Source: a virus. From it: a DNA stretch of 13,447 nucleotides. A program made the translations under genes and the position numbers. The stretch lies in the UHGV virus genome UHGV-0125438; one strand, given 5' to 3'. The notes under the pieces are model-generated. The model saw nothing but the letters and a program-made list of their open reading frames with translations. It did not search any database and had not been told where the DNA came from. Positions 1 through 13,232 of this stretch are shown here, one piece after another (position 1 is the first letter of the stretch; each line of letters opens with the position of its first letter).

Positions 1-51
1 TATGGTGCTCTTGGTCTTAATTTCCACAGATTTCACATGGAGAGAAAATAA
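1..51 (+). CDS. 3' end of an upstream gene (partial, last 16 codons), product unknown
   Basis: Frame 1 is open from the window edge to a TAA at 49-51 that overlaps the next gene's ATG (TAATG, 49-53), a typical translational-coupling junction in phage late operons. Too short to assign a function. Confidence 0.3.
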   Translation, partial: YGALGLNFHRFHMERK

Positions 52-590
52 TGTGTAACCCAGCCATCGCTTTGGTTGCCGTCACAGTGGCATCCACAGC
101 CGCGTCAATGTACAGCCAGAGCAAGCAGGCAAAATACCAGTCAGCCATAGCTGATCGGAATGCTGAAATTGCTGAAGCTCAGGCACAGGATTCAATCAAT
201 CGTGGGAATATTGAAGCGGATCAGCGTCGTCGTGAAATGCGTCAACGCTCAGGCACTGCGGCGGCCACTATGGGTGCTACCGGTGCGGAATTAAGTAGCG
301 GAACAGCTCTTGACGTTTTTGCGGATAATGCTCAGTTCGGCACTCTTGATGCGTTAACGACAGTGAATAATGCTCAGCGTGAGGCATATGGGTATCAGGT
401 TCAGGGAATGAATGCTCAGGCACAGGGGGCTGCTGCTCAGTCGGCTGCTAAATCATCGATGACCAGCACTTTGTTAACGGCACCACTAAAAGCATACGGT
501 GCATACCAGATGGGCGGCGGAACGTGGAGCCCGTTCTCTCAGAAAGCTGCGCCGATTTCTGCTGCTGTTGGTACTCCAACCGGTCGATAA
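51..590 (+). CDS. small virion-associated protein (179 aa), Ala/Gln-rich with an N-terminal hydrophobic segment; possible internal/ejection-associated protein
   Basis: ATG at 51 preceded by GGAGAG (40-45); uninterrupted 179-codon ORF. It is followed 12 nt later by the first of three large co-oriented genes. N-terminal segment AIALVAVTVASTAASMY is hydrophobic. Function inferred from position only. Confidence 0.7.
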   Translation: MCNPAIALVAVTVASTAASMYSQSKQAKYQSAIADRNAEIAEAQAQDSINRGNIEADQRRREMRQRSGTAAATMGATGAELSSGTALDVFADNAQFGTLDALTTVNNAQREAYGYQVQGMNAQAQGAAAQSAAKSSMTSTLLTAPLKAYGAYQMGGGTWSPFSQKAAPISAAVGTPTGR

Positions 591-602
591 GGGGATAATA
601 AG

Positions 603-3116
603 ATGCCAGTTGTACCAACAACATCGGGCCGTCAGGTTCAAAGCAGAGGGATTTCGACGCAGGGATTCTCATCGTTTCAGACACCAAATGTCGGTGATGT
701 ACTTGGCGATGTTGCAGAGCAATATGCAGGTATTATTGCGCAGGCAAAACAGCGTGCGAATGTTGCTATGGCTCAGGATGCTTCTCTTAGCTTAAGCCAG
801 ATAAGCAGCGATCTGCTGAATAACCCTGAAACAGGTTTGCTTAACCTGAAAGGGAAAAATGCTATTGGAAAAGGTCAGGAGTATACGCAGCAGTTTGATG
901 CCCAGGTCGAGCAACTGGCTATGTCGCTGCCGGATGAACAGGCTCGTAATGCTTTCATGCAGCAGGCACAGCAGCAGCGCATTCAGTTCACTACGCAGGC
1001 CGGGCGGCACGAGATAGGGCAAATTAATGCCTACGAAGAAGGTCAGTTTCAGGCGACGCTGCTGAATAATGGTAAAAATGCCGCAGCATTGTATGGCGAC
1101 AATGCCGCATATGTATTGGCTAATAAGCAAACTTTCCAGCAAATTGAGGATTACGGCATTGCGCATGGCTGGAGCGACGAGCAAATCCAGGCCAAGAAAA
1201 TCGAGTTTAAAGAGAAGGTTGCTGATGCCGCATTGTCCCAGTGGTCGGCAAACAATGCGACCGCATTCATCCAAAGTAATGGCGAGTTAAGTGATACTGC
1301 TGCTGGAGCTCGCCGTGCTGTAGCAGATAGTGACTCTTCCGAGCGTGCCCGTGGCATACGCAACAATAACCCAGGAAATCTCGAATACAGCAAAACTAAT
1401 CCGTGGGTAGGCCAGACCGGTGATGATGGTCGATTTGCTAAATTCGAAACACCTGAACACGGGATTCGTGCATTAGGGCGGAACCTGATGTCGTATCAGC
1501 GGCAGGGTATTGATACAGTCAGCGAGATAATTAATCGCTGGGCACCGCCTACTGATAAAAATGACACTATGTCGTATATCAAAGCAGTGTGCGAACAACT
1601 TGGCGTTTCTGCTGATGAGCCTCTCGATGCATCAAATCCTGATACCCTGAAGGCGCTTTGTGCAGCCATTATCCATCATGAGAACGGTAGCCAGCCATAC
1701 AGTGATCAGCAGTTAACTGCTGGTGTCAGTGCAGCACTTGGTTTATCAACAATTCCAACCAACACCAAACGCTATACCGGTAATGCAGCATTCGATGCGG
1801 CCTCTCCTGAGGCGCAGGCAAGTTTTATGCGACAGGCGGATCAACTGCGTCGGCAGCAGCAGGCTGAATATAAAACGATGATTGACAGCCAGGTTCGCGA
1901 TGCGACGGCTGCGTATATGCGTGGCGTTGAATTTCCTAATCCACCTGGTGAGGCTGATTTTATTGCAGCTTATGGCGTCAGAGAAGGAAACCTGCGATAT
2001 ACCGAGTTCAGAAATACGCAGATCGCCGGACAGTATATAGGCTCTTTCCGCAACATGCCGACAAGCAGCATTACAGCATATGTTGAGCAATTACGCCCGG
2101 ATACTGGTGAGACAGGGGAGGGGTATGCGGCACGCGCAGCTCTTTATGACAACGTTGTTTCGGCTGCAAATCAGGTGATAAAGCAGCGGCAGTCGGATCC
2201 TGTGCAGTTCTCTCTTGCCTCCGGACAGGCAAAGCCTATCGACATGAGCAATAAGGATAACTTTGGACAGAGCGTTGCCTTGCGTGCCGCTCAGGTCAGT
2301 GACCTTGCCAAGTCATATGGCACTCCACTGACGTTCTTTTCCAAAGACGAGGCCAATCAGATCGGTGTTTTCTTTCGTGATGCGCCCGTTTCCCAACAGG
2401 CAGCATATCTCGATACCATCAGGCAAAGCACTGGCGGTGGGCAAGTGTATATGTCAGCACTACAGCAGATCAGTGCCAACGCTCCATCTGCTGCCGTTGC
2501 CGGGATACTGATGGATAAGCCTGGTGGTATTTTGGCAGAAAAAAACTGGTTTAATCCGGATGTTTCCGTGTCTCCTGAAACCGCTGCGCAGACAATTCTT
2601 GCTGGCGCGGCGGCTCGTAAAGGTACTGATGATGCGAAAGGTATTCCGATGCCTAAAGATGCTGATCTTCGCCTTGAGTTTTCTGACATGGTGAAGGATG
2701 CATTTGCTGGTGACGCTCAGGGGGCATCAATGGCATACGAGATCGCAAAGGATTATTACGCTGGTGTGATGGCGAAAAAAGGCGTGGTATCAGGCGAAAT
2801 TGACAATGATGTCTGGAAACAGGCTGTTAACGTAGCTACAGGTGGCGTGCATGACTATAACGGAATGGGGAATGTCCTTTTGCCGTGGGGAATGTCTGCA
2901 GAGCAATTCGATAAGCAGGTTAATCAGGCTTGGAATGAACAAGTTGTCGGCTCCGGGATAAAAACACCGCCTGGTCAGTATGGTTTGCAAAGTTACGGCG
3001 ATAGTCAGTACCTGGTGAAACTTGGTACTGGTTATCTGCTGAAAGATGATGGTTCTCCCGTTGTTCTTAATCTGACACAGAAGCGTCAGAGATTCTCCGG
3101 AGATATTCCGCAATGA
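603..3116 (+). CDS. large internal virion / ejection (core) protein, 837 aa
   Basis: 837-codon ORF with ATG at 603 after GGGGATAATAAG; stop overlaps the next start (ATGA at 3113-3116). First of three consecutive 600-840 aa proteins immediately upstream of the tailspike, matching the ejection-protein block of epsilon15-like podophages as I recall it. Contains a motif block (GIRNNNPGNLEY ... HGIRALGRNL ... INRWAPP) that looks like a discrete domain. Confidence 0.8.
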   Translation: MPVVPTTSGRQVQSRGISTQGFSSFQTPNVGDVLGDVAEQYAGIIAQAKQRANVAMAQDASLSLSQISSDLLNNPETGLLNLKGKNAIGKGQEYTQQFDAQVEQLAMSLPDEQARNAFMQQAQQQRIQFTTQAGRHEIGQINAYEEGQFQATLLNNGKNAAALYGDNAAYVLANKQTFQQIEDYGIAHGWSDEQIQAKKIEFKEKVADAALSQWSANNATAFIQSNGELSDTAAGARRAVADSDSSERARGIRNNNPGNLEYSKTNPWVGQTGDDGRFAKFETPEHGIRALGRNLMSYQRQGIDTVSEIINRWAPPTDKNDTMSYIKAVCEQLGVSADEPLDASNPDTLKALCAAIIHHENGSQPYSDQQLTAGVSAALGLSTIPTNTKRYTGNAAFDAASPEAQASFMRQADQLRRQQQAEYKTMIDSQVRDATAAYMRGVEFPNPPGEADFIAAYGVREGNLRYTEFRNTQIAGQYIGSFRNMPTSSITAYVEQLRPDTGETGEGYAARAALYDNVVSAANQVIKQRQSDPVQFSLASGQAKPIDMSNKDNFGQSVALRAAQVSDLAKSYGTPLTFFSKDEANQIGVFFRDAPVSQQAAYLDTIRQSTGGGQVYMSALQQISANAPSAAVAGILMDKPGGILAEKNWFNPDVSVSPETAAQTILAGAAARKGTDDAKGIPMPKDADLRLEFSDMVKDAFAGDAQGASMAYEIAKDYYAGVMAKKGVVSGEIDNDVWKQAVNVATGGVHDYNGMGNVLLPWGMSAEQFDKQVNQAWNEQVVGSGIKTPPGQYGLQSYGDSQYLVKLGTGYLLKDDGSPVVLNLTQKRQRFSGDIPQ

Positions 3117-4915
3117 GTTACTTTGGCCTTAATCCAGTAAACCAGAATCAGCAGCTTGACGAAGCAGCATCAAATCCAGCTGGCTTTAACAGCGATGTTG
3201 GTTTTTTCGACAATGCTGTAGGAGCGGCATTGTCTGGTTTGTACTCCGGGCTGGTGGCAAAGCCAGATCAGTTGCTATGGGCAGGGATGGATAAAATCGT
3301 ATCCCCGATCGCTCAGTTTGTTAACGAAAACACCTCGCTCAATGATACTTCAGTTTCATACATTGCCGAGCAGAGAAAACTAGCAGAGCAGCAGGTTAAG
3401 CGGCTGACGCCTGATGCCGCGACAACCGGAACCGCCGGGCAGGTTCTTTATGGGTTGTTCGATATGGGAGGGCAGGCTGTTGTCGGTACAACGCTCGGTG
3501 GTCCTGTCGGAGGTGCAGCGGCGGTAACTTCGCTACAGGGTTTTTCTGAGTTTGAACGGCTGACAGCACAGGGTGTTGATTTCAGGACGGCGCAGGAAGC
3601 GGGATTAGTGCAGGGCATTACTGCTGGTGCCGGAACACTGATCCCTATGAGCCTCGGGTTACGTGCTGGTGGTGCGCTGGCGGAAGGTGTGGCGGCTCAG
3701 CTTGCGCGGACGGGTGAGAGTTCAGTGCGACGCGCCGCAGCAACAGCAGTACGTGCAATGCCAGATATTGCCTATGCCGCAGGTACAAATATTGCGTTCG
3801 GTATGGCACAGCGTGGGCTTACTGCAAAAACGCTTCGTGATGGTGGCTATAGCGAAATGGCTAACCAGTATGATGTGTTGGATCGACAGGCAATTGCTAT
3901 TGATGCTGTTCTCGGGGTGGCGTTTGGTGGTGTCGGCAGATTTATTAACTCTCGCGGCGAGTCTACAAACGCACCAAATTTTTCACCAGTTGATATCGAT
4001 GCTGCACTGGCTGCGAATGCCGCTCATCATGCTGAAATTGATATTGCGCCCGGCGTGCCGATCAACGTGCTTTCGCGCAATTCTCACATTCAGGCTCTGC
4101 GAAAAGCTATGTCTGATGTTAGCCAGGGGAGACCTGTAGACGTTGCCAGCATTGTTGAGTCTGCATCTTTCAGTGAAATTCCTGGGCGCAAGAGTCTGCT
4201 GTCTCAGGCAGTTAATGAGGCTCTGTCATCTGTAGATGATGGAGTAACGGCGCGCGCTATAGAAAATCGGTTGCTTGAAGAACAGGCCGCGCAGCTTTTG
4301 CCGCGTGGAGATAGACAGGTTTACCAGTCTGAAATCGCTAATAGCCAACGAATTATCGACAATCTCACTGAACAGCGCGCACAAATTCTTGCAGAAGAGC
4401 CAACTGGTAGCGGTAAAGCTTTGTCTCGTGCTCGATCAGATAAACAGGCAAGAATTCGCGATATTGACCAACGAATCCGGCAGGCACAAGAACGCCTGGA
4501 ATTTTCCCGTAACGCGTTGGCACCGCATGAGCCTGGCGGTCAGTTTTTTGAAGCTCGAGCAGAACTGGCACGGAGACAGCAGGCTGAAAGTGAACTTAAT
4601 GCTCAGGCTGTTTCATTCTATAAAACAGCAGAGGTCAGGACGCCAGACGAAGTAGCTCCTTTTGAGCCCGGTAAGATATTGCAACAGACAGAACAAAAAA
4701 TGATGGCAGATCCGGCAGGGGATATTGATCTGCGTATAGCTGAAGACTCGCTGCTTGAATCTCCGGACATGATAATCACCGTGCTGGATGATGATGGTAA
4801 TCCACAATCGCGCAGTGCGCGTGAAGTACTGGATGAAGTGAACAGGGAAAGTGAGCAGGCAATACAGGATTCCAGCCTGTTTGATGTTGCTGTGGCGTGT
4901 TTCTTGAGAGGTTAA
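3113..4915 (+). CDS. internal virion / ejection protein, 600 aa, with Gly/Ala-rich hydrophobic segments
   Basis: ATGA start/stop overlap with the upstream gene; 600-codon ORF. Residues about 100-290 carry repeated small-residue hydrophobic stretches (LGGPVGGAAAVTSL, GITAGAGTLIPMSLGLRAGGALAEGVAAQLA, AIDAVLGVAFGGVG) followed by a charged, helix-prone C-terminal half. Confidence 0.8.
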   Translation: MSYFGLNPVNQNQQLDEAASNPAGFNSDVGFFDNAVGAALSGLYSGLVAKPDQLLWAGMDKIVSPIAQFVNENTSLNDTSVSYIAEQRKLAEQQVKRLTPDAATTGTAGQVLYGLFDMGGQAVVGTTLGGPVGGAAAVTSLQGFSEFERLTAQGVDFRTAQEAGLVQGITAGAGTLIPMSLGLRAGGALAEGVAAQLARTGESSVRRAAATAVRAMPDIAYAAGTNIAFGMAQRGLTAKTLRDGGYSEMANQYDVLDRQAIAIDAVLGVAFGGVGRFINSRGESTNAPNFSPVDIDAALAANAAHHAEIDIAPGVPINVLSRNSHIQALRKAMSDVSQGRPVDVASIVESASFSEIPGRKSLLSQAVNEALSSVDDGVTARAIENRLLEEQAAQLLPRGDRQVYQSEIANSQRIIDNLTEQRAQILAEEPTGSGKALSRARSDKQARIRDIDQRIRQAQERLEFSRNALAPHEPGGQFFEARAELARRQQAESELNAQAVSFYKTAEVRTPDEVAPFEPGKILQQTEQKMMADPAGDIDLRIAEDSLLESPDMIITVLDDDGNPQSRSAREVLDEVNRESEQAIQDSSLFDVAVACFLRG

Positions 4916-4920
4916 ATTAA

Positions 4921-7395
4921 ATGAGACAGGAATGTATACAAGCGGTCCAGCAGGCGGCGCAGCGCACGTTAACGGCGCGAGAAATACAGAACATTGAAGA
5001 CCGCATTTATCGAAATATGCGCTCCATTGCTCGTGATGATCCGATGTCGTGGCGACAACTTTCCGAATCAGAACGGTTGTATCGTGCAGCACAATTGGCA
5101 TCTGAAGAATTACAGCGAGAAGCGGCATTAAAGAAACGTCGTGTGGCTCTCACTATAGCCGCACGTCAGAGATTGGATAAATTTATCAATAGCTATCAAG
5201 GGGCTGATGGGAAACTTGGCGCTCTTAACCGTACTATTGCTTTTAATGCAGACGGTAAATCGAATTTCCTCTCTGTTGAATCCAGAACAAAAGCCACTCG
5301 TGATTATGCATTGAGTCAATTGCAGGAGGCATTTGAAGCAGTTGATCCTCGCTTTTTTGGCCTGTTTGAAGATGAAGCTGGCGTGCGTGACCTGGTATAT
5401 GAAATGCGAGGGCAAAATACTGGCAATGCTAAAGCAAGAAAAGGTGCTAAGGCGTGGAGAGAAGTGACAGAGCTACTGCGCCGCCGGTTTAATGATGCTG
5501 GTGGGGACATTGGCTATCTCGAAAACTGGGGGATCCCTCAACATCATTCTATGGAAAAGGTTGGGGCGGTATCAAAGGATAAGTGGGTTAGCGATGTTAT
5601 AGGTAAGCTGGATCGCAAATATTATACCCGAGTCGATGGACAACTGATGAACGATGCCGAGTTGTCTGCATTTCTTGGAGAGGCTTATAACACGATCGCT
5701 ACTGGTGGGCTGAATAAGCTTACTGATACCGGAATGCGAATTTCCGGCGCACGTGCTAACCGTGGTAATGCATCACGACAGATACATTTCAAAGATGCAG
5801 ATTCCTATCTGCAATATCAGCAACTTTATGGCGATCGCTCTCTATGGGAAATCATGGTCGGTCACCTGGAAGGTATCAGTAAAGATATTGCACTGGTGGA
5901 AACATATGGCCCAAACCCCGATCATGTTTTCCGCTCTCTTCTTGATCAGGTGAAGGCAGAAACTGCAACAGCTAACCCGAGTAAAATCGGTAAAGTCGAG
6001 CGGCTGGCGAACAACACAGAGAATCTGTACAACTTTATTTCCGGAAAGACACAGCCTGTAGCGAATCCGCACATCGCGCGATGGTCTGACAATATCCGCA
6101 ACTGGCTGGTTGCCAGCAGACTCGGATCCGCGTTGCTGTCATCGTTCTCTGATCTTGGAACCATGTATCTGTCTGCGAAGGTTACCAACCTTCCAATGAA
6201 CCAGTTATTCCGCAACCAGCTTGAAGCTATGGACCCAACGAACCGTACAGAACTTGCGCGGGCGCGCCGCGCTGGTCTGGCGATGGAATCTTTACTTGGC
6301 AGCGTTAACCGCTGGGCGATGGATAATATGGGGCCGTCAGTGTCTCGTTGGGCGGCAACGGCGGTAATGCGTGCCAGTGGGCTTACAGCATGGTCAGATG
6401 CGCACAAGCGCGCCTATGGCGTAACCATGATGGGAAGCCTGGGAGAAGTAGTGTCACGGACAGCAGACCTTCGTAGCCTCGATGACTCTGATTTTCGTAT
6501 CCTGAAAAGCAAAGGGATTACTGACACAGACTGGAGAGTATGGAAGCTGGCGCAACAGGAGGACTGGGGGAACGGTAATAATACGATGCTGACACCGGAA
6601 AGCATTATGCGTATCCCTGATTCAGCAGTTAAACATCTTGGTGATCCTGAACGTGTGAAATTTGAGGCAATGCGTAAACTGCTCGGTGCCGTAACTGAAG
6701 AAGTTGATATGGCTGTTATTACACCGGGAGCACGTGAGCAACTGATAACCGGTTCTGGTATTCAGCGTGGAACATGGAAAGGTGAATTAACGAGAAGTGT
6801 TTTCCTGTTTAAATCGTTCCCTATCTCGGTGGTTATGCGTCACTGGTCACGCGCTATGGGTATGCCGTCTGCTGGTGGGCGTGCGGCATATATTGCGACG
6901 TTTATTGCCAGTACGACCATTCTTGGAGCTTTGTCGCAGCAACTTAACGACCTTGCGTCTGGTCGTAATCCTCGCGAGATGACAGGAGAAGATGCCGCAA
7001 AATTCTGGCTTGGTGCTCTATTGAAAGGTGGTGGTCTTGGCCTTTACGGTGACTTTTTATTGTCAGATCACACTAGGTACGGAAGCGGCGCGCTGGCGTC
7101 GATGCTTGGCCCGGTGGCTGGTCTGGTTGATGACGTAGTGAAGATTGCTCAGGGCATACCGTTAAATGCTGTGGAAGGGAAGAGTGAGCAGACTGGTGGT
7201 GATCTGGTGAAGCTGGGGAAAGGTTTGATGCCAGGTGCGAATCTCTGGTACTTGAAGGCGGCTCTCGATCACATGATCTTTAACCAGATGCAGGAGTATT
7301 TTTCACCAGGCTATTTGCGTAAAATGGAGCAACGTTCGAAGAAAGAGTTTAACCAGACATACTGGTGGCGACCTCAGGATGTCACTCCGCAATAA
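4921..7395 (+). CDS. large internal virion / ejection protein, 824 aa
   Basis: ATG at 4921, 5 nt after the previous stop; 824-codon ORF ending TAA at 7393-7395. Third large protein of the block; the only antisense ORFs across it are low-complexity shadow ORFs. Confidence 0.8.
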   Translation: MRQECIQAVQQAAQRTLTAREIQNIEDRIYRNMRSIARDDPMSWRQLSESERLYRAAQLASEELQREAALKKRRVALTIAARQRLDKFINSYQGADGKLGALNRTIAFNADGKSNFLSVESRTKATRDYALSQLQEAFEAVDPRFFGLFEDEAGVRDLVYEMRGQNTGNAKARKGAKAWREVTELLRRRFNDAGGDIGYLENWGIPQHHSMEKVGAVSKDKWVSDVIGKLDRKYYTRVDGQLMNDAELSAFLGEAYNTIATGGLNKLTDTGMRISGARANRGNASRQIHFKDADSYLQYQQLYGDRSLWEIMVGHLEGISKDIALVETYGPNPDHVFRSLLDQVKAETATANPSKIGKVERLANNTENLYNFISGKTQPVANPHIARWSDNIRNWLVASRLGSALLSSFSDLGTMYLSAKVTNLPMNQLFRNQLEAMDPTNRTELARARRAGLAMESLLGSVNRWAMDNMGPSVSRWAATAVMRASGLTAWSDAHKRAYGVTMMGSLGEVVSRTADLRSLDDSDFRILKSKGITDTDWRVWKLAQQEDWGNGNNTMLTPESIMRIPDSAVKHLGDPERVKFEAMRKLLGAVTEEVDMAVITPGAREQLITGSGIQRGTWKGELTRSVFLFKSFPISVVMRHWSRAMGMPSAGGRAAYIATFIASTTILGALSQQLNDLASGRNPREMTGEDAAKFWLGALLKGGGLGLYGDFLLSDHTRYGSGALASMLGPVAGLVDDVVKIAQGIPLNAVEGKSEQTGGDLVKLGKGLMPGANLWYLKAALDHMIFNQMQEYFSPGYLRKMEQRSKKEFNQTYWWRPQDVTPQ

Positions 7396-7404
7396 GGATG
7401 AGAA

Positions 7405-7545
7405 ATGATTGCTTTTATTCTTGTTGTATTTGTGCTTGTTGCCCTTGGCGTTATGAATCGTAAATGTATCATTGAAGACGGTGAATTTGCTGTAGCAGTT
7501 GTTTTGATATTATCTGGTGTAGCAGGGCACATAGGTTTGTCATAG
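7405..7545 (+). CDS. small hydrophobic protein (46 aa), hypothetical
   Basis: Absent from the supplied ORF track (below its length cutoff). ATG at 7405 lies 7 nt after AAGGA (7393-7397) and 9 nt after the upstream stop. My translation is MIAFILVVFVLVALGVMNRKCIIEDGEFAVAVVLILSGVAGHIGLS, two hydrophobic stretches around a charged loop; stop TAG at 7543-7545. Confidence 0.4.
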   Translation: MIAFILVVFVLVALGVMNRKCIIEDGEFAVAVVLILSGVAGHIGLS

Positions 7546-7565
7546 CTTGAGTGTGACATGTCACA

Positions 7566-7581
7566 GGCCGCTTTCGCGGCC
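7566..7581. terminator. GC-rich hairpin (GGCCGC-TTTC-GCGGCC) between convergent genes; possible bidirectional terminator or RNA-stabilising stem
   Basis: Perfect 6-bp GC stem with a 4-nt loop, sitting between the end of the + strand small ORF (7545) and the stop of the - strand gene (7589-7591). No clean poly-U tract on either strand, so terminator function is uncertain. Confidence 0.3.
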
Positions 7582-7588
7582 CTTAAAT

Positions 7589-7846
7589 TTACCGGATTTG
7601 TTTTCGTAATTGTTCGGCACAATAGTCGAGATGTGTTTGCAGATCCTGCATAGACATCTGTGAGCTGGTGACGTAGTTAATCAGTGCAGTCAGTTCGGCA
7701 AGTGGGCCATCGACATTAAATCCATCCTTATCGAGATCCCGGAGTAATTTCATCAAGTGCGATCCCTCCACCAGTGACCTGACGCCTCCCGGCGTGTGAA
7801 TCCTTTCGGTAAATCCGTCTTCCAGTGGATAGTGATACTGCTGCAT
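7589..7846 (-). CDS. small antisense protein (85 aa), unknown function, apparently LexA/SOS-regulated; candidate antirepressor or SOS-induced moron
   Basis: Only convincing - strand gene in the window. I place the start at the internal ATG (7846-7844) because GGAGAAGATAAG sits just upstream on the - strand; the track's longer 126-aa form would run through the LexA box and an AT-rich low-complexity stretch. Product begins MQQYHYPLEDGFTERIHTPGG. A LexA box lies about 20 bp upstream. Confidence 0.55.
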   Translation of the reverse strand: MQQYHYPLEDGFTERIHTPGGVRSLVEGSHLMKLLRDLDKDGFNVDGPLAELTALINYVTSSQMSMQDLQTHLDYCAEQLRKQIR

Positions 7847-7865
7847 CTTATCTTCTCCATGCAAT

Positions 7866-7885
7866 AACTGTATGTTTATACAGTA
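7866..7885 (-). promoter_or_regulatory. LexA binding site (SOS box): AACTGTATGTTTATACAGTA
   Basis: CTGT-N8-ACAG with flanks matching 17 of 20 positions of the E. coli LexA consensus TACTGTATATATATACAGTA, both CTGT/ACAG half-sites intact. It sits in the AT-rich intergenic region just upstream of the - strand gene starting at 7846. Confidence 0.6.
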
Positions 7886-8041
7886 ACAAATAATTTGTTT
7901 GCTATCCAGCACGTTTTGCAAATTACCCGAAAGGTAATATCTATTGGTATTTATAGTCTTTTTATCCATATATGGTTTTTCAGGTAATAGAATAACCAGA
8001 TATGCGGCGCAACGGGTGCTGCGACTATCTGGAGATTTAAC

Positions 8042-10393
8042 ATGACGGTCTCAACCGAAGTTGACCACAACGAATACACCGGTAACGGCGTTACGACATC
8101 ATTCCCTTATACCTTTAGGGTTTTCAATAAATCTGATCTAGTAGTGCAGGTGATTGACCCTGAAGAGAATATCACTGTGCTGGCTCTTGATACTGATTAC
8201 ACAGTCACTGGTGCGGGAGGGTATAACGGCGGCAATGTAATTCTGTCGAAGGCACTGGCTAATGGTTATCAGATTTCCATATCGCGAGAACTGCCGGTTA
8301 CTCAGGAAACAGATCTTAGAAACCAGGGTAAGTTTTTTGCTGAGGTGCACGAGGATGCGTTTGATAAGCTGACTATGCTCATACAGCAGGTAAGTAGTTT
8401 ATTCGGGCTGGCGCTACGTAAGCCATCGAGTATCGCAAACTGGTATGACGCGCTGAACAACTACATCCGTAATCTGTGCGACCCACGAGACCCACAGGAC
8501 GCGGCTACCAAGAACTATGTCGATACGCTGGCAAGTGGCAACTTGAGCCGTACTCTGCGCGTTCCTGAGCCCATTAATCAGCTACCATCAGCAGTTGACA
8601 GGGCAAACAAAATGCCCGCGTTTGATAGCATGGGTAATGCAATTGTCGTTCTCCCGCCATCAGGTTCCGCATCTGAAGTTCTGATAGAGCTGGCAAAAAG
8701 TGACGGCTTCAAATTGATAGGGCAATTCCCTAACGTCACAGTTCTCCGTGCAACGGAGCCAGCTTCCGATGGTCAGCGGGTGCTCCTGAAAGAATATACC
8801 TCTGGTACAGGTTACGGTGGTGGTCAGCTTCGCGCAGTGCTTGATGGAAGTGCATATACAGACAACGGCGTTACCGTATTCAAGACTCCTGGTGGAGCGG
8901 CATGGATTCGTGTTAATGCTGATATCATTAACCCATTAATGGCTGGCGCAGTGCCTGATGGAGTTACCCCGTGCTCAGCAGCAATTAACGCCATGTTTGC
9001 TGTTGGCAAGAGAATGCAGTTTACAGGTGGTGATTATCTTCTTGATGCCACTATAACATTGCAAGCAGGTAGGTCTGTAGATTTTGGATCATCAAGGTTA
9101 ATCCAGGGTACTTCGCTGGCAAATTATATATTGGCGATAAGGGGGGATAATACACATACCTCAGGTGGTTTTATAGTTGGCACAGGTGTCAGGGCTGGGG
9201 CAAACAGTGTGGTGTCTGCGGTATTAGTTGCTGATACCTCTTATAGTTATGTTAAAGGAATGACAGTAAGAAGGGTCCCTGGCTCTGGTATTCAGATGAT
9301 CAATTGCACACGTTGTAAAATTCAGGATTGCATTTCTGAAAATAACTGGGGTATGGGTATTGAAGACCGTTACGGGACATTCAATGAAATTATCAATTCT
9401 GTCGGTAACTATAATGGTTATCTGAGTGATACAGAAATATCTGATGGCGGCAGAGGATGTATTGTCTGGAAGAGCACTGGTACAACCTTTAAAGGAAATC
9501 AAACATTCGGAAATAGCGAGTACGGCATTCGTGTGTATTCACAATCTGGAGATGATGCCACTACACGTTACATCCACATTTTCGACCATCTGGCTGGCGA
9601 TAACAAAAAAATAGACATCTACATTTACAATGATGCAGGAACACTACTTAACGTTGAGTTGAGTAATTGCCATATCCATAGATGGAGCCAGTCATTTAGC
9701 GGAAGCTATATGATTTCTTTGCAAGGAACTCGCTGCCATTTCAATGGAGGAAGTATAACAAAATATGGTGACATTTACGATTCAACGGCAATCCATTGTA
9801 GCAATGGCGACAATATCACAGTTGAAAACGTCAGCATTTCTAACGTATCTGCTGCTTTCGGTAACACTGCCAATAATACTACCGTAAGAAATTGCTCTGC
9901 TTCTTGTGGCGTTGTTATGACAGGTACAGGTGGAACCACCGGATATCTGACATTTGAAAATTGTAACTTTAGCCACACTGGCGCAGGTACATCTGATATA
10001 GCTTTCACAGTAACCTCTGCTACAAAACTTGAAGGGGTCAGGTTCAACGGATTCTTTAGGAATGTTTCATGGAACAATGAACCTCTAATCCTTATAGATT
10101 GTCACAGCACAAATACAACTGGAGACGCAATCAGAATGTACGGAGATGGTGTTGGAGCGTTCTTCCACTCTGGCTGTCGTTGGGATGTCCCAACAGTTCC
10201 TGCCTGGCTTGGAAGCTTAGTGAAGCAAGGATCATCTCTCCCTGTGCTTTACGATACCGCCGCTCCAACCACTTTGACCTGGCCAAGGGGATCGCGATGC
10301 ATAAATTCCTCTCCTGCTGTCGGGAGCCCTAAGGAGTGGGTATGTGTTACCGCCGGCACTCCTGGCACTTGGCAGTCAACAGGAAATCTCTAA
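8042..10393 (+). CDS. tailspike protein (783 aa): conserved N-terminal particle-binding domain plus beta-helix receptor-binding / polysaccharide depolymerase domain
   Basis: ATG at 8042 after GGAG; 783-codon ORF. The N-terminus MTVSTEVDHNEYTGNGVTTSFPYTF matches, from memory, the conserved tailspike N-terminal module of epsilon15/phiV10-like phages. The C-terminal two-thirds is rich in short Asn/Gly/Ser/Thr-containing repeats (NVSISNVSAAFGNTANNTTVRNCSASCGVV, and similar), typical of right-handed parallel beta-helix depolymerases. Confidence 0.85.
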   Translation: MTVSTEVDHNEYTGNGVTTSFPYTFRVFNKSDLVVQVIDPEENITVLALDTDYTVTGAGGYNGGNVILSKALANGYQISISRELPVTQETDLRNQGKFFAEVHEDAFDKLTMLIQQVSSLFGLALRKPSSIANWYDALNNYIRNLCDPRDPQDAATKNYVDTLASGNLSRTLRVPEPINQLPSAVDRANKMPAFDSMGNAIVVLPPSGSASEVLIELAKSDGFKLIGQFPNVTVLRATEPASDGQRVLLKEYTSGTGYGGGQLRAVLDGSAYTDNGVTVFKTPGGAAWIRVNADIINPLMAGAVPDGVTPCSAAINAMFAVGKRMQFTGGDYLLDATITLQAGRSVDFGSSRLIQGTSLANYILAIRGDNTHTSGGFIVGTGVRAGANSVVSAVLVADTSYSYVKGMTVRRVPGSGIQMINCTRCKIQDCISENNWGMGIEDRYGTFNEIINSVGNYNGYLSDTEISDGGRGCIVWKSTGTTFKGNQTFGNSEYGIRVYSQSGDDATTRYIHIFDHLAGDNKKIDIYIYNDAGTLLNVELSNCHIHRWSQSFSGSYMISLQGTRCHFNGGSITKYGDIYDSTAIHCSNGDNITVENVSISNVSAAFGNTANNTTVRNCSASCGVVMTGTGGTTGYLTFENCNFSHTGAGTSDIAFTVTSATKLEGVRFNGFFRNVSWNNEPLILIDCHSTNTTGDAIRMYGDGVGAFFHSGCRWDVPTVPAWLGSLVKQGSSLPVLYDTAAPTTLTWPRGSRCINSSPAVGSPKEWVCVTAGTPGTWQSTGNL

Positions 10394-10432
10394 TGTGATA
10401 TCCTCATTAACAAGGACGTTTTTGAGGTGTTT

Positions 10433-11809
10433 ATGTCAGTTTCCAGAAGAAATTTTATTAAATTAGCTGCGGCCATCGGCGCGCTGTCAGGATCTGGTCT
10501 TCTTTTTGCAGATTTTGTTGCTGGAAGGAAAAACCGCGTATTCATTATTTACGGACAATCCAACTCAACAGGAGCCGTTGATTATTCACAGACCTGGAGA
10601 ACACCAAGCCCATGGGATTCTTATCTTGAATCATATGAGGGTGAGAGAGACGGTAGTAAATTCATCACAACTGATTTGGCAAGTGCATTTACTTTGTCCT
10701 CAGGCGGCGCAAGCTTAACCAATTTAGACAGAATGGCATTTGGTATTGATGCAGGAGAAGGGCCTGTATACGGAATAATTTCACATATCTCAAAAGCGTT
10801 TCCAAATGACAATCTTATTATCTTCGGGCACGGAAGGGGATCCCAGTATATAGAGCAACTTATTAAGCCTAGCAAAGATTTAATTCTTAATGGTGACAAC
10901 TATAACAAACCTCTAACTAAAGAGTCTTCTGACTACAATGTAGTATCAGGAAATAAATCACTGCTTTATTATCGCGAGCCAAAATTCCGCTACCCTTATC
11001 TGAACGGTATGTGGATGCTCGAAAAAATAAAAGATATTATCAAAAGTGATATTCAAGTTGATGGCATCTTCTGGATTCAGGGGGAAAATGATGCCATCGC
11101 CCCTAAAGGATATTCTGAAAAACTTCTATCATTCAGAAATGATTACGTTAAAGATATTGTAAAAATCACAGGGCAGGGCAAAGAGCCAGAGTTTATTTTT
11201 GAGCAAAGCAATTACTGTTGGCATGGTTTTAAAACCGAAGGTAGAAGGATAAACTCACACTTTGGTCTTAACGTCGAGCAACGCATGGCCCATGATGAAG
11301 CAAAACATTCCGGCATTAAGATGTACATCTCTGGCCCAAGATATCACCTGACGAACGAAATTCATATGTACCCACATGCCCAGCGTGCACATGGCGAAAA
11401 AATGGCACAGGCGTATTTAACTAGTAAGTTGTCAGGTTCATCATGGTCACCTCTATGTTATAAATCACATTCTATCGATGGTAACAGCATTATTATAAAA
11501 TTTAATATTCCTGTGAAGCCATTGCAATTTAGAAAAACCCTCAACGGAATGTATTCATTTATAAAAGATGGTTGTCCTATGGGTTTTCATTTCACAGGAA
11601 AAAAACTATCTGCTAGCGACGTTAAGATCATTTCAGATGATACTGTGAGCATCAATACTTCCGGCCTTAAAGGTACGGTGAGTTATCTTAAAGAGTCACG
11701 GATAGGAGAGCTTTGCGATAGTGATGAATTCCCAAATCATTTTAAAGATCGCTATCATGCAGACAATTGCATGCTGAATTATTGCCTTCCGTTTGAGATA
11801 GAAATTTAG
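10433..11809 (+). CDS. Tat-exported SGNH/SASA-family carbohydrate esterase (sialate O-acetylesterase-like), about 458 aa; candidate O-acetyl esterase acting on surface polysaccharide
   Basis: N-terminus MSVSRRNFIKLAAAIGALSGSGLLFA has a twin-arginine motif (SRRNFIK) followed by a hydrophobic h-region. The mature part begins IIYGQSNSTG (SGNH block I as in the SASA family GQSNMxG) and later has WIQGENDA (block III, GxND). Start chosen at ATG 10433 (GAGG 5 nt upstream) rather than the track's GTG at 10427. The gene is visibly AT-rich and sits 39 bp after the tailspike stop. Confidence 0.75.
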   Translation: MSVSRRNFIKLAAAIGALSGSGLLFADFVAGRKNRVFIIYGQSNSTGAVDYSQTWRTPSPWDSYLESYEGERDGSKFITTDLASAFTLSSGGASLTNLDRMAFGIDAGEGPVYGIISHISKAFPNDNLIIFGHGRGSQYIEQLIKPSKDLILNGDNYNKPLTKESSDYNVVSGNKSLLYYREPKFRYPYLNGMWMLEKIKDIIKSDIQVDGIFWIQGENDAIAPKGYSEKLLSFRNDYVKDIVKITGQGKEPEFIFEQSNYCWHGFKTEGRRINSHFGLNVEQRMAHDEAKHSGIKMYISGPRYHLTNEIHMYPHAQRAHGEKMAQAYLTSKLSGSSWSPLCYKSHSIDGNSIIIKFNIPVKPLQFRKTLNGMYSFIKDGCPMGFHFTGKKLSASDVKIISDDTVSINTSGLKGTVSYLKESRIGELCDSDEFPNHFKDRYHADNCMLNYCLPFEIEI

Positions 11810-11934
11810 GCAAATCACCTCTAGGGTAATTTCGTTAAGAGTTATCCGATCAAATTTAATCCACATATGGTTTATTGTGTATGATGAACTCACCAACTAA
11901 GGGGGTTCTTTATGCACATTAAACGGTGGTCACT

Positions 11935-12339
11935 ATGTCGCACTCGTTAACCACTGAAACGCTGAATCAGGGGCTTAGCCTGAGCGCGCTGATGTCTGTG
12001 GTCGCGGGTGCGCCGCCTGAGGTGGCTTTAGGGGCGCTCGCTGGCGCGGTAATTTTTGTTACCTCGGCGGTGGAGTATCCCATAAAGCGACGGTTACTTC
12101 TGGCGTTCCTCAGCTTCTTCTGCGGCCTTCTCTTCTACAAACCGACAGCAACACTTCTCATCGGCTTCGCATCCGCTTTCCCTGGTATTACCACAGATAT
12201 GTTTGAGAAAGGTGTTGCTTACTCAGCAGGGGCGTTTGTTTCTTCAATCGTTGCTGTTGGTATCGGTACCTGGCTGTATCACCGTTCTGGAAATCCACGC
12301 GACCTGATTCCGGGGAGAAAAGACGATGATCAGTCCTGA
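11935..12339 (+). CDS. multi-pass membrane protein of the lysis cassette (about 134 aa); putative holin or holin-associated protein
   Basis: Three to four hydrophobic helices (LSLSALMSVVAGA, LGALAGAVIFVTSAV, LLLAFLSFFCGLLFY, AGAFVSSIVAVGIGTWLY) and a charged C-terminus (RSGNPRDLIPGRKDDDQS). It directly precedes a second small membrane protein and the endolysin. Start is ambiguous: ATG 11935 with GGTGG upstream, or the track's GTG 11926. Confidence 0.65.
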   Translation: MSHSLTTETLNQGLSLSALMSVVAGAPPEVALGALAGAVIFVTSAVEYPIKRRLLLAFLSFFCGLLFYKPTATLLIGFASAFPGITTDMFEKGVAYSAGAFVSSIVAVGIGTWLYHRSGNPRDLIPGRKDDDQS

Positions 12340-12613
12340 GCTCATCCTGAACGCCGCTATATGTGGCGGCATTGCAATCCGAGTCCTGCTGTTCCGCCGT
12401 GACGGGTCACGCCATCGCTGGTGGGGAGGGTGGCTCGCCTATCTGCTGATCGTCGTTGCTGCCAGCGTACCTATCCGGACGTTCTACGGGTACTACGTCA
12501 GCGCCGACTGGTCAGAAATCATCATCAAAGCCGTGTTCCTGGCTGCGCTGATCAAGACAAAAGGGAACGTGGTACAAATCTTCAAGATAACGAGGTCCCA
12601 GCATGGACATTAA
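12326..12613 (+). CDS. putative holin (95 aa)
   Basis: ATG at 12326 after GGGGAG; overlaps the upstream gene by 14 nt and the endolysin start by 11 nt. Small protein with two to three hydrophobic segments and a basic C-terminal tail (KTKGNVVQIFKITRSQHGH), as expected for a holin. Confidence 0.65.
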   Translation: MISPELILNAAICGGIAIRVLLFRRDGSRHRWWGGWLAYLLIVVAASVPIRTFYGYYVSADWSEIIIKAVFLAALIKTKGNVVQIFKITRSQHGH

Positions 12614-13232
12614 ACAATTCCAGCGTGCAGCTGGTGTCAGTGAGGTACTGGCCACGCGCTGGTTCCCGCATATCACCGCAGCAATGAAAGAGTTTGGCAT
12701 TGAGCATCCGCTGCACCAGGCGATGTTTATCGCGCAGGTGGGGCATGAATCCGGCGGATTTACCCGGCTGCAGGAGAATTTTAACTACAGCGTGACCGGG
12801 CTGGCAGGATTCGTCCGCGCCGGGCGACTCACCCAGGGTCAGGCCAACGCGCTGGGCCGCCGTGCCGGCGAACCATCGTTACCGCTGGAGCGCCAGCGTG
12901 CGATAGCCAACCTGGTGTACAGCAAACGCATGGGGAACAACGGGCCGACAGACGGCTGGTTTTACCGCGGGCGCGGGCTTATCCAGATCACCGGGCTGAA
13001 CAACTATCGCGACTGCGGCAACGGCCTGAAGGTTGATCTGGTGCAGAAGCCAGAGCTGCTGGCACAGGATGAGTATGCAGCCCGCAGCGCGGCGTGGTTC
13101 TTCGCCACCAAAGGCTGCATGAAGTACACAGGCGACCTAGTGCGCGTCACGCAGATCATTAATGGCGGGCAGAACGGTATCGACGACCGGCGTGCGCGGT
13201 ACATCACTGCCAGTAAGGTGCTGGCGGTATGA
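12603..13232 (+). CDS. endolysin, glycoside hydrolase family 19 (chitinase-like lysozyme) type, 209 aa
   Basis: Motifs FIAQVGHESGGF and YRGRGLIQITGLNNY are, from memory, characteristic of GH19-type endolysins of enterobacterial phages. Position between the holin and the spanin fits a lysis cassette. GC-rich relative to neighbouring genes. Confidence 0.8.
   Translation: MDIKQFQRAAGVSEVLATRWFPHITAAMKEFGIEHPLHQAMFIAQVGHESGGFTRLQENFNYSVTGLAGFVRAGRLTQGQANALGRRAGEPSLPLERQRAIANLVYSKRMGNNGPTDGWFYRGRGLIQITGLNNYRDCGNGLKVDLVQKPELLAQDEYAARSAAWFFATKGCMKYTGDLVRVTQIINGGQNGIDDRRARYITASKVLAV

Follow-up and report, generated by a model that had tools for sequence, protein, structure and literature searches.

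The five modules of the tailspike gene

The window, which is the whole 13,447-nucleotide stretch of DNA analysed here, very likely derives from a temperate E. coli podovirus of the phiV10/epsilon15-like type (Uetakevirus) and represents its late region. Its gene order is that of phiV10, PAS61, F138 and the Enterobacter prophage L012; its backbone is 93–97% identical at the DNA level to phiV10, PAS61, F138 and PH444, except across 8520/8699–11813. Prophages near-identical over the full window are present in several E. coli assemblies, such as GCA_012737095.1 and GCA_050296475.1; GCA_052760785.1 and GCA_037970925.1 likewise encode the 783-residue tailspike of cluster P0001. The tailspike gene (8042–10393, plus strand) is located between the internal-virion-protein genes and a holin/GH19 lysis cassette. 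It consists of five modules, namely an anchor, a linker, a PF27114 domain, a right-handed β-helix and a C-terminal domain.

The anchor (8042–8520, residues 1 to ∼160) is a virion-anchoring N-terminal domain of the T7 gp17/phiV10 gp25 type. Up to ∼8520–8525, its DNA matches phiV10 and PAS61 at 88–91% identity; it contains one weak Phage_T7_tail Pfam match (residues 11–162), and in a PDB sequence search the N-terminus of Dpo31 matched residues 1–166 with an E-value of 1e-25. As in Uetakevirus tailspikes, the anchor is homologous to that of phiV10 gp25, which blastp aligned over residues 1–327 at 68.5% and which is 88% identical in DNA to 8524; in PMC10408124, the anchor of phiV10/epsilon15-like tailspikes is defined as the first ∼205 residues. 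The linker or neck (8521–8698, residues ∼160–219) is 87–98% identical to L012 and ends at a recurrent mosaic boundary, 8698/8699. The domain assigned to PF27114 ('Phage_tail_beta'; 8699–8980, residues 220–313), which precedes the helix, has a GC content of 0.518 and no codon-level shift. The assignment was precomputed on P0001, a 99%-identical cluster representative, and on all relatives; PF27114 was not among the matches when the protein from the window was itself scanned against Pfam locally. CBA120 TSP2 (5w6p/6w4q) matched residues 201–367, with E-values of 1e-27 to 2e-28.

The fourth module, the right-handed parallel β-helix (8981–10111, residues 314–690, GC 0.411), is the receptor-binding part and a putative depolymerase. 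In the AlphaFold model, which was built as a monomer only, a confident right-handed β-helix with pectin-lyase-like fold runs from residue ∼305 to ∼700, as the earlier note had expected from structure prediction. The helix is rich in Gly (12.2%), Thr (9.8%), Ser (9.8%) and Asn (8.5%), the four residues that the earlier note had named, and in Ile (8.2%); no catalytic residues could be assigned in the tailspike by homology. The conserved C-terminal domain (10112–10393, residues 691–783, GC 0.53) carries one widely shared terminal motif, with short high-identity matches to the otherwise unrelated β-helix proteins P0024–P0031 that cover 8–14% of the query.

The phiV10, F138 and PAS61 tailspikes show protein homology only over residues 1 to ∼306–382, whereas the same β-helix (72–99% identity) is found on the T7/phiV10-type anchor, on the P22 Head_binding domain, on Tail_spike_N (PF18668) and in one 816-residue spike of a baseplate phage. 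The homology stop, the modelled helix and its presence on at least four anchor types bear out the suggestion that a receptor-binding helix has been joined to a particle anchor. The 'conserved N-terminal module' of that suggestion is, for its part, a mosaic: anchor, linker and PF27114 domain meet in it, and further breakpoints lie at ∼8520 and 8698/8699.

Base composition and recombination breakpoints

The GC profile across 8042–11809 is not uniform. In sliding windows, GC is ∼0.50–0.52 at 8250–9000, drops to 0.38–0.44 at 9000–10050, is 0.49–0.50 at 10050–10500 and 0.36–0.42 in the esterase gene, and exceeds 0.52 from ∼11850. Recursive maximum-likelihood segmentation of the whole window placed the first split at 11970 (GC 0.473 and 0.570 on the two sides) and the second, within 1–11969, at 8983 (0.494 and 0.411; LLR 31), less than 20 nt from the break that had been claimed at ∼9000. 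The first 313 codons (GC ∼0.49) resemble the upstream structural genes (0.50), as had been proposed for the first ∼300. The AT-richness ascribed to the remainder holds for the β-helix and the esterase, but not for the last 93 codons (10112–10393, GC 0.53), and the AT-rich block said to continue into the esterase is interrupted by this GC-rich tailspike C-terminus. 'Repeat-like' is appropriate for the β-helix rungs of the protein, but not for the DNA, in which Tandem Repeats Finder detected no repeats.

A change-point test within the tailspike gene returned one change-point, at 10141, which was insignificant (LLR 4.7; null maximum 8.0) and was dropped; the two-state model is unsuitable there because the GC-rich C-terminus confounds it. 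It was replaced by the whole-window segmentation and by tests at each codon position. GC1 of the gene falls from 0.58 to 0.43 at codon 337 (reached by 2 of 500 shuffles) and GC3 from 0.50 to 0.36 at codon 250 (3 of 500), and GC2 increases at codon 739.

About two thirds of the GC drop (∼0.06 of ∼0.09) comes from the amino-acid sequence, and only one third (∼0.03) from codon choice. The β-helix has a GC content of 0.411 against 0.443 expected from its amino acids (z = −3.8), and the esterase 0.391 against 0.423 (z = −4.2). This synonymous AT bias is common to the β-helix and the esterase (−0.032 and −0.033, respectively); it is absent from the PF27114 and C-terminal domains, which lie in or beside the shared block described below. 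The GC drop at 8983 marks the PF27114/β-helix boundary; it is mostly due to the Gly/Thr/Ser/Asn/Ile-rich helix, and the remainder to AT-biased codons. It coincides with the predicted start of the β-helix, with the end of phiV10-type homology (residues ∼306–327) and with the left edge of the block 8980–11803.

As delimited by pairwise identity, this block (8980–11803, plus strand) contains the β-helix, the C-terminal domain and the esterase, and was recently common with P22-like prophages. PSJ-36 and LR-25, two E. coli O93 strains, carry the block in P22-like prophages, and the sequence to either side of it there is unrelated; among the genes of these prophages are those for a tail needle, Arc, Ant and gp7/gp20/gp16-type ejection proteins, and their tailspike has a P22 Head_binding domain (residues 4–114). 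In 60-nt windows, identity to PSJ-36/LR-25 is 55–85% to the left of 8980 and mostly 97–100% from 8980 to 11760, with dips to 0.83–0.93 at 9960–10080 and 10260–10380, and it collapses after 11803. The patch at 10260–10380 is 100% identical to prophage L013 and 83–87% to PSJ-36. Identity to PSJ-36 stays unbroken at 97–100% from the stop codon of the tailspike through the spacer of 39 nt to the end of the esterase gene. All identity profiles were taken from pairwise global alignments; one four-way MAFFT DNA alignment was discarded for its unreliable local identities.

Alignment of the tailspike to its relatives, which had been proposed as a way to find the recombination joint, did map joints, near 8520, 8698/8699, 8980 and 9330–9420; they are several, however, and their position varies with the relative. 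In blastn, homology to the F138 prophage stops at 8698 and homology to PSJ-36 starts at 8699, and matches in 5,426 E. coli genomes break at query 298/300, corresponding to 8697/8699. The picture of a single clean joint at this position was dropped, since PSJ-36 is only 55–85% identical until 8980; the breakpoints are therefore several and nested. L012 is the closer match in the PF27114 domain (97%, against 82% for PSJ-36), and PSJ-36 in the β-helix (98%, against 78% for L012). The crossover is at 8980 against PSJ-36 and at ∼9420 against L012. Because identity to L012 stays at 88–97% through 8980 and on to ∼9420, the edge at 8980 may be a joint of the PSJ-36 lineage, not of this phage. On the right, the joint and the intergenic region span 11810–11925; homology to F138, phiV10 and L012 restarts at 11814 in blastn, ∼112 nt before the holin gene.

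Taken together, these observations show that recombination has recently moved the block 8980–11803 between phiV10-like and P22-like prophages, in one direction or the other. Its left flank is the conserved PF27114 domain plus the first helix rungs, and its right flank the border of the slot, which lies ∼112 nt upstream of the holin gene. That the esterase might have arrived together with the tailspike C-terminus had been suspected; the single 97–100% block, the collinear tailspike–esterase pairs in L013 (85% DNA identity) and in L015, a prophage bearing a baseplate (72%), and the same codon shift in both genes all agree with this. On longer time scales the helix can part from its downstream gene: in close relatives gtrABC or an acyltransferase takes the place of the esterase, and the β-helix of L015, which is followed by the esterase, is closest to the helices of L006 and L009, both gtrABC-linked. 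The tailspike–esterase unit was seen in a phiV10-like, a P22-like and a baseplate-bearing phage, and in one of unknown architecture. Modularity of tailspikes is textbook matter, so this mosaic is one further example; it is a well-resolved one, with breakpoints located to tens of bases.

The downstream esterase gene and its slot

The esterase gene (10433–11809, plus strand) encodes 458 residues; it starts with the ATG at 10433, and one GAGG ribosome-binding site lies 5 nt upstream. The N-terminus of the product, MSVSRRNFIKLAAAIGALSGSGLLFA, contains one Tat signal (residues 1 to ∼28), in which the motif SRRNFIK, of the S/T-R-R-x-F-L-K type, is accompanied by a hydrophobic stretch. TIGR01409 scored 19.4 bits against its cutoff of 16.7, and Pfam TAT_signal 18.1, which is under its cutoff of 22.7; the Tat motif is kept in the homologues P0032–P0034. 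PF03629 (SASA) matched residues 196–331 with 38.2 bits (cutoff 24.8), and the fold is of the SASA/SGNH type. The SGNH motifs are present as GQSN in block I, QGE-ND in block III and, towards the C-terminal end of the domain, one His. Conservation reaches at least 90% for G41-Q42-S43(-N44), which for N44 holds only in alignment A1 (15 sequences); G217-E218 and H311 do not vary in either A1 or A2, and Q216 is invariant in A2 and at least 90% conserved in A1. By comparison with SGNH enzymes in general, these conserved residues are putatively catalytic. Among solved structures, only the Pan3 tailspike matched the esterase family profile, over 95 residues. Homologues numbered 6 by word search and 11 after profile search, and 11 of 1.8 billion cluster representatives fell below E = 1e-30; the closest relatives are virion tail proteins. 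By its sequence, the product is predicted to be a rare SASA-type carbohydrate O-acetylesterase bearing a Tat signal.

The esterase gene occupies the tailspike-adjacent slot that otherwise holds O-antigen-modifying genes. In phiV10, the slot contains oac, annotated 'acetylates the host O-antigen; functions in superinfection immunity'; it contains an O-antigen acetylase gene in PAS61, acyltransferase genes in F138 and L012, and gtrABC in L006, L009, YA-1 and the PSJ-36 argW prophage. GtrABC is also recorded at this slot in L020 and L021. In most relatives oac or gtrABC is on the strand opposite to the tailspike gene; in the window, the tailspike, esterase and holin genes are all co-oriented. The esterase has no homology to acyltransferase_3 or to GtrA/B/C and its fold is that of an SGNH/SASA esterase, therefore it is only a positional analogue of Oac and GtrABC, not a family member. 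One role as peptidoglycan O-acetylesterase, considered for the lysis-cassette neighbourhood, was rejected because the tailspike gene, not the lysis genes, is the constant neighbour everywhere and because, to our knowledge, the peptidoglycan of E. coli is not O-acetylated.

Putative role in receptor editing and comparison with known systems

The receptor-binding domain is present in 5 of 5,426 complete E. coli genomes, all 5 of them among the 10 with an O93-family wzy; the hypergeometric probability of this overlap is 6e-15, or 5e-9 when counted as 3 lineages. The O93 association comes from few lineages; two pairs of strains, PSJ-36 with LR-25 and ij001 with EC_T6, are probably near-clonal. The O-antigen clusters of the hosts include one hexapeptide acyltransferase, and the O93 repeat bears Man2Ac6Ac (PMC10191223). 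Judged by this host distribution, the domain is likely to be specific for the E. coli O93-family O-antigen. O93 does not occur in the main text of the tailspike survey PMC10408124, where 'esterase' occurs once; it would be a predicted serogroup outside the published tailspike-specificity surveys.

The putative esterase would be exported via Tat to the periplasm, where it is predicted to de-O-acetylate the 2,6-di-O-acetyl-mannose in the repeat unit of O93. Such deacetylation would alter the receptor that is read by the partner tailspike, and the enzyme would be a subtractive counterpart of the Oac acetyltransferase and GtrABC glucosylation modules. The likely benefit would be that the lysogen or infected cell is shielded from superinfection and that progeny are not trapped on debris. 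We put the chances at about even that the Tat-exported enzyme deacetylates the O93 antigen and in this way edits the tailspike receptor. All characterised phage O-antigen conversions that we know of add a group (acetyl, glucose, phosphoethanolamine) or alter the polymer linkage. More tentatively, the locus could represent a subtractive O-antigen conversion of a new kind, in which periplasmic O93 deacetylation is coupled to a matching tailspike and both move jointly among at least three to four virion architectures. If true, an esterase that erases a host-made decoration and travels with the tailspike that fits it would open a different route to receptor editing, with bearing on serotype prediction from prophage tailspikes and on tailspike-based typing and killing tools.

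The esterase might instead be a late helper, which is released or exported in lytic growth and either strips acetyl groups, priming the O93 chains of neighbouring cells for binding or cutting by the tailspike, or destroys the receptor at release. One simple consensus scan detected neither a promoter nor a terminator belonging to the esterase gene, and the esterase–holin interval showed no terminator-like or promoter-like site either; as the gene is also co-oriented with its neighbours, expression in the prophage state is not supported. However, such a scan is blind to activator-dependent or weak constitutive promoters; the Tat signal targets the periplasm of the producing cell, not virions, and the slot is a seroconversion slot in every relative. 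We consider this role rather unlikely.

It is improbable that the β-helix and the esterase were acquired separately, the downstream slot being an independent hot spot and the linkage coincidental. Helices 74–79% identical to that of the window do precede gtrABC (L006, L009) or an acyltransferase gene (L012); the L015 helix clusters with gtrABC-linked helices (89–90%) yet has the esterase downstream, and the tailspike genes of two PSJ-36 prophages are identical for the first 990 nt while their downstream modules differ. Against this, identity to PSJ-36 passes from the tailspike into the esterase without a break, the codon-level shift is equal in both genes, and helix and esterase diverge in one order, PSJ-36, then L013, then L015.

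Like the window esterase, E. coli NanS and the prophage NanS-p are of the SASA family, and NanS-p is prophage-borne; it is very unlikely, though, that the esterase acts on sialate as NanS does and is a nutritional 'moron' with no link to the receptor of the phage. NanS is not its closest similarity and the locus is not an Stx-phage late region. Hardly credible is a single gene history without any swap, the break being a by-product of β-helix amino-acid usage: the amino-acid-expected GC does drop from 0.52 in the PF27114 domain to 0.443 in the β-helix, the biggest shift is in GC1 (codon 337), and the E. hormaechei L012 tailspike is collinear over its full length (783 residues, 83%), but the leftover codon-level AT shift (z = −3.8), the abrupt identity changes along the gene (65–98% to L012, 55% to 100% to PSJ-36, F138 ending at 8698), the segment-wise identity matrix and the same helix on four unrelated N-termini all contradict it.

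The account that we favour, a modular tailspike with an exchanged helix-plus-esterase block, an O93 receptor and putative deacetylation, in a phiV10/epsilon15-like phage, is as a whole very likely. Tailspike swapping is ordinary; it is the esterase partner that is unusual.

Among known systems, phiV10 (Uetakevirus; E. coli O157) shares the backbone (93% identical in DNA once the variable segment is set aside), the anchor at the N-terminus of gp25 (88% DNA identity to ∼8524, protein homology to residue 327) and the order of tailspike, O-antigen-modifying gene, holins and GH19 endolysin. Different from the window, its β-helix is unrelated and O157-specific, and its slot encodes an acetyl-adding membrane acyltransferase on the opposite strand, whereas the window slot holds a co-oriented gene for a Tat-signal esterase that is predicted to remove acetyl groups. 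The P22, Sf6 and HK620 tailspikes likewise combine a conserved anchor with an exchangeable O-antigen-specific β-helix, as described in PMC10408124, which also reports tailspike transfer across unrelated genera and notes that an O-antigen modification gene may adjoin the receptor-binding protein in Lederberg- and Uetakeviruses; compared to the picture given there, the exchanged unit in the window takes in a second gene. CBA120 TSP2 (PDB 5w6p/6w4q) has another anchor, that of the branched Kuttervirus complex, and an O157-specific helix of different sequence. In G7C gp63.1, the cyanopodophage Pan3 tailspike and Klebsiella prophage SGNH tail fibres, the esterase is fused to a virion anchor and acts outside the cell; the window esterase, in contrast, has a Tat signal in place of an anchor and is encoded beside a separate β-helix tailspike.

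Tailspike architecture and its backbone

The window comprises the late region of a temperate podovirus, phiV10/epsilon15-like and of the genus Uetakevirus. It contains one T7_gp14-like gene (51–590), three large internal-virion-protein genes (603–7395), the tailspike gene (8042–10393), the esterase gene (10427/10433–11809; product of 458/460 aa) and the genes of two holins and one GH19 endolysin (11926–13232), all on the plus strand. Outside 8520–11813, the DNA is 93–97% identical to that of phiV10, PAS61, phage PH444 and the E. coli F138 prophage. Prophages adjoining yfgI/yfgH in several E. coli assemblies are ∼97% identical to the whole window; the arrangement is therefore established and natural. 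The stretch 7400–8040, which separates the tailspike gene from the last of the internal-virion-protein genes, differs between relatives, with a Bro-N antirepressor in phiV10 and AntA in locus L025. In the window, it holds one 126-aa ORF on the minus strand (7589–7969), where close relatives have 85 aa; ahead of the ORF lies one strong GC-rich terminator-like hairpin (7566–7581; GGCCGC-TTTC-GCGGCC, then a T-run).

The tailspike is 783 residues in length, and its module limits were set by comparison with relatives. The anchor (residues 1–∼160; 8042–8520) is common to all phiV10-like phages; it shares 88–91% DNA identity with phiV10 and PAS61 up to ∼8520–8525, matches Pfam Phage_T7_tail weakly and, among PDB sequences, aligns with the Dpo31 N-terminus. 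A linker (residues ∼160–219; 8521–8698) leads to a putative PF27114 'Phage_tail_beta' domain (residues 220–313; 8699–8980), which is precomputed on P0001, a cluster representative 99% identical to the window tailspike, and on all relatives; it is homologous to the domain ahead of the beta-helix in CBA120 TSP2 (E ∼1e-28). Across the 5,426 complete E. coli genomes searched, matches break sharply at 8697/8699, where phiV10-like tailspikes give way, from left to right, to 'phage tailspike protein' genes of P22-like type; the HSPs of F138 and of the O93 strain PSJ-36 meet at 8698/8699. At the protein level, homology ends at residue 327 for phiV10 and at residue 306 for F138.

The C-terminal domain (residues 691–783; 10112–10393) has a GC content of 0.53. 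Its final ∼60 residues reappear, with 48–95% identity, in otherwise unrelated metagenomic beta-helix proteins (P0024–P0031), and may act as a common 'handle' for trimerisation or recombination. Residues ∼720–783 (10200–10393) carry the recurrent motif …TAAPTTLTWPRGS.C.N..P..G.PK.WVC…GTPGTW…. The patch 10260–10380 is 100% identical to L013, one locus with tailspike and esterase, and only 83–87% identical to PSJ-36.

Compositional break and the shared block

An earlier note, made from the sequence by eye, had placed a compositional break near 9000, where an AT-rich beta-helix would be fused to a conserved N-terminus. The break is real and significant, and recursive likelihood segmentation located it at essentially the same coordinate: the first split of the whole window fell at 11970 (GC 0.473 and 0.570), and the second, within 1–11969, at 8983 (GC 0.494 and 0.411; LLR 31). 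GC is ∼0.50–0.52 over 8250–9000, 0.38–0.44 over 9000–10050, 0.49–0.50 over 10050–10500, 0.36–0.42 over the esterase and >0.52 from ∼11850. The AT-rich block, which the note had described as continuing into the esterase, is interrupted by the GC-rich C-terminal domain. Along the tailspike, GC1 falls from 0.58 to 0.43 at codon 337 (the observed value was reached in 2 of 500 shuffles); GC3 falls earlier, from 0.50 to 0.36 at codon 250 (3 of 500 shuffles), and GC2 goes up at codon 739.

The GC drop was decomposed with the structural genes upstream as the codon-usage reference. For the beta-helix (residues 314–690), GC is 0.411, versus 0.443 expected from the amino acids alone (z = −3.8); for the esterase, the values are 0.391 and 0.423 (z = −4.2). 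No such codon-level shift was found in the PF27114 domain or in the final 93 codons of the tailspike. About two thirds of the drop comes from the Gly/Thr/Ser/Asn/Ile-rich helix and one third from AT-biased synonymous usage, which is equal in size in helix and esterase. The residue bias proposed for the helix stood, whereas its repeat-like character did not extend to the DNA, in which no repeats were found. A second module boundary is marked by the GC change point at ∼11970, at the lysis cassette. The cassette is also distinct in composition, in the opposite direction (GC 0.54–0.61; codon-level z against the structural genes = +3.1, +5.6 and +9.4 for holin 1, holin 2 and endolysin).

The P22-like prophages of the E. 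coli O93 strains PSJ-36 and LR-25 share the block 8980–11803 with the window. In 60-nt windows, identity is 55–62% at 8620–8800, 78–85% at 8800–8980 and 97–100% over 8980–11760, with short dips at 9960–10080 and 10260–10380; it collapses past 11803, six bases ahead of the esterase stop codon. PhiV10-like homology restarts at 11814, ∼112 nt 5′ of the holin gene. These prophages encode a tail needle knob, ejection ('DNA transfer') proteins, Arc and an antirepressor; their tailspike carries the P22 Head_binding domain at residues 4–114, and the esterase is the final prophage gene, followed by dacD. Taken together, four independent markers converge on codons ∼305–337: the change point in GC, the position at which phiV10-type homology stops, the first rungs of the beta-helix and the left limit of the shared block. 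Segment-wise protein identities make the mosaic explicit: the PF27114 domain is 97% identical to that of L012, a phiV10-like prophage of Enterobacter hormaechei, and 82% to that of PSJ-36, whereas the beta-helix shares 98% identity with PSJ-36 and 78% with L012.

Tailspike and esterase are also collinear with the window in L013 (95% and 83% protein identity; DNA 85% over 8831–11808) and in L015, a baseplate-bearing, myovirus-like prophage (77% each; DNA 72% over 8702–11811). With the PSJ-36/LR-25 block, these loci support the proposal that tailspike C-terminus and esterase moved as one cassette, as far as recent transfer is concerned, and the interpretation of the earlier note is supported. 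The breakpoints are nested, however, and their positions vary with the comparator. Identity to L012 holds at 88–97% from 8520 to ∼9420, and the two P22-like prophage tailspike genes of PSJ-36 are 93–100% identical in their first 990 nt (window ∼9330), then only 54–84%; the first rungs (8980–9400) are thus a conserved zone of recurring crossovers. From sequence comparison, the direction of transfer and the exact crossover point cannot be fixed. Three beta-helix clades were distinguished by segment-wise identity: the window, PSJ-36 and L013, all with the esterase; L015 (esterase) with L006 and L009 (gtrABC); and L012 (acyltransferase) with P0012, P0013, P0016 and P0017, these four placed by helix alone. 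The downstream slot was therefore also exchanged alone over longer times.

The two PSJ-36 prophages with O93-type tailspikes are L001 (NZ_AP027648.1 ∼1842413–1881402) and L020 (NZ_AP027648.1 1458893–1473294); one of the pair lies at argW with gtrABC, the other at sbcB/dacD with the esterase. The pair looks like the outcome of a recent recombination inside one cell, or of co-resident phages in an arms race.

Probable O93 specificity and the esterase

Beta-helix DNA occurs in five of the 5,426 complete E. coli genomes (PSJ-36, LR-25, YA-1, ij001 and EC_T6), all five among the ten that carry O93-family wzy (hypergeometric probability 6e-15; 5e-9 counting only three independent lineages). The O-antigen clusters of PSJ-36 and LR-25 contain O93-family wzx and wzy, manB/manC and a hexapeptide-type acyltransferase. 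Judged from this host distribution and cluster content, the receptor-binding domain is probably O93-specific. The O93 repeat unit is ->2)-beta-Man-(1->3)-beta-Man2Ac6Ac-(1->4)-beta-GlcA-(1->3)-alpha-GlcNAc-(1->, and its cluster encodes a putative acetyltransferase, WexC (PMC10191223). Uronate epimerase and lyase modules are the best structural match of the helix; with the 4-linked GlcA of the repeat, this gives a lyase mechanism as a lead, with predicted action at the Man2Ac6Ac-(1->4)-GlcA bond.

The esterase probably starts at ATG 10433, with GAGG 5 nt 5′ of it. Its N-terminus, MSVSRRNFIKLAAAIGALSGSGLLFA, is a canonical twin-arginine signal; the TIGR01409 score exceeds the cutoff, RefSeq annotates a homologue likewise, and the motif is kept in the homologues P0032–P0034. 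The body matches Pfam SASA above threshold, and GQSN (41–44), QGE (216–218) and H311 are conserved among homologues. The family is very small, with 6 clusters among 5.8 billion in a word search and 11 representatives with E < 1e-30 among 1.8 billion; the esterase is present in 2 of the 5,426 E. coli genomes, and no close homologue was found in 50,697 phage records. Weak matches in phage records are annotated as tail fibres, distant relatives are 650–930-aa proteins with the esterase C-terminal, and one of them, P0036, takes the place of the gpH tail fibre in a P2-like phage. The esterase of the window therefore resembles an esterase domain of tail fibres from which the anchor has been lost and to which an export signal has been added. 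In the P2-like phage L016 (8001–10046; compost metagenome), a 681-aa homologue with 39% identity occupies the gpH position right after gpI, which suggests that enzymes of this domain family belong primarily to virion tail fibres. P0035, annotated in E. coli assemblies, is a truncated esterase homologue (298 aa; 63% identity) in which the first 160 residues, and with them the Tat signal, are missing; it may descend from a second esterase lineage and have decayed.

In every relative, the slot adjoining the tailspike holds an O-antigen modifier. PhiV10 carries oac, with the annotation 'acetylates the host O-antigen; functions in superinfection immunity', and PAS61 has an O-antigen acetylase; F138 and L012 have acyltransferases there, and L006, L009, YA-1 and the PSJ-36 argW prophage have gtrABC. 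Because of this slot, the predicted export compartment and a presumptive host antigen that is heavily O-acetylated, the best-supported reading, at about an even chance, is that the esterase would be exported to the periplasm, where O-antigen is polymerised and ligated, and would de-O-acetylate the O93 antigen, altering the receptor read by its partner tailspike. The main functional rival, a late-co-expressed helper enzyme that destroys or primes the receptor, is somewhat less probable; the esterase gene runs in the same direction as those of the tailspike and holins, and no site resembling a promoter or terminator was found around it, which fits late co-expression as well as or better than conversion in the prophage state. 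A NanS-like nutritional role is very improbable, given the fold ranking and the strict tailspike adjacency.

Comparison with known systems

As a mosaic, the tailspike is an ordinary case of a known phenomenon, and a well-resolved one. Described esterase tailspikes include G7C gp63.1 and the SGNH tail fibres of Klebsiella prophages, which act from outside to remove acetyl groups from O-antigen or capsule. Full-text searches of one open-access library yielded no account of a free-standing esterase with a Tat signal that accompanies a beta-helix tailspike, nor of a temperate phage that converts O-antigen subtractively. The tailspike-linked esterase is worth a bench test: as a co-travelling enzyme with predicted export, it is a new variation on the 'tailspike plus receptor-modifying gene' module.
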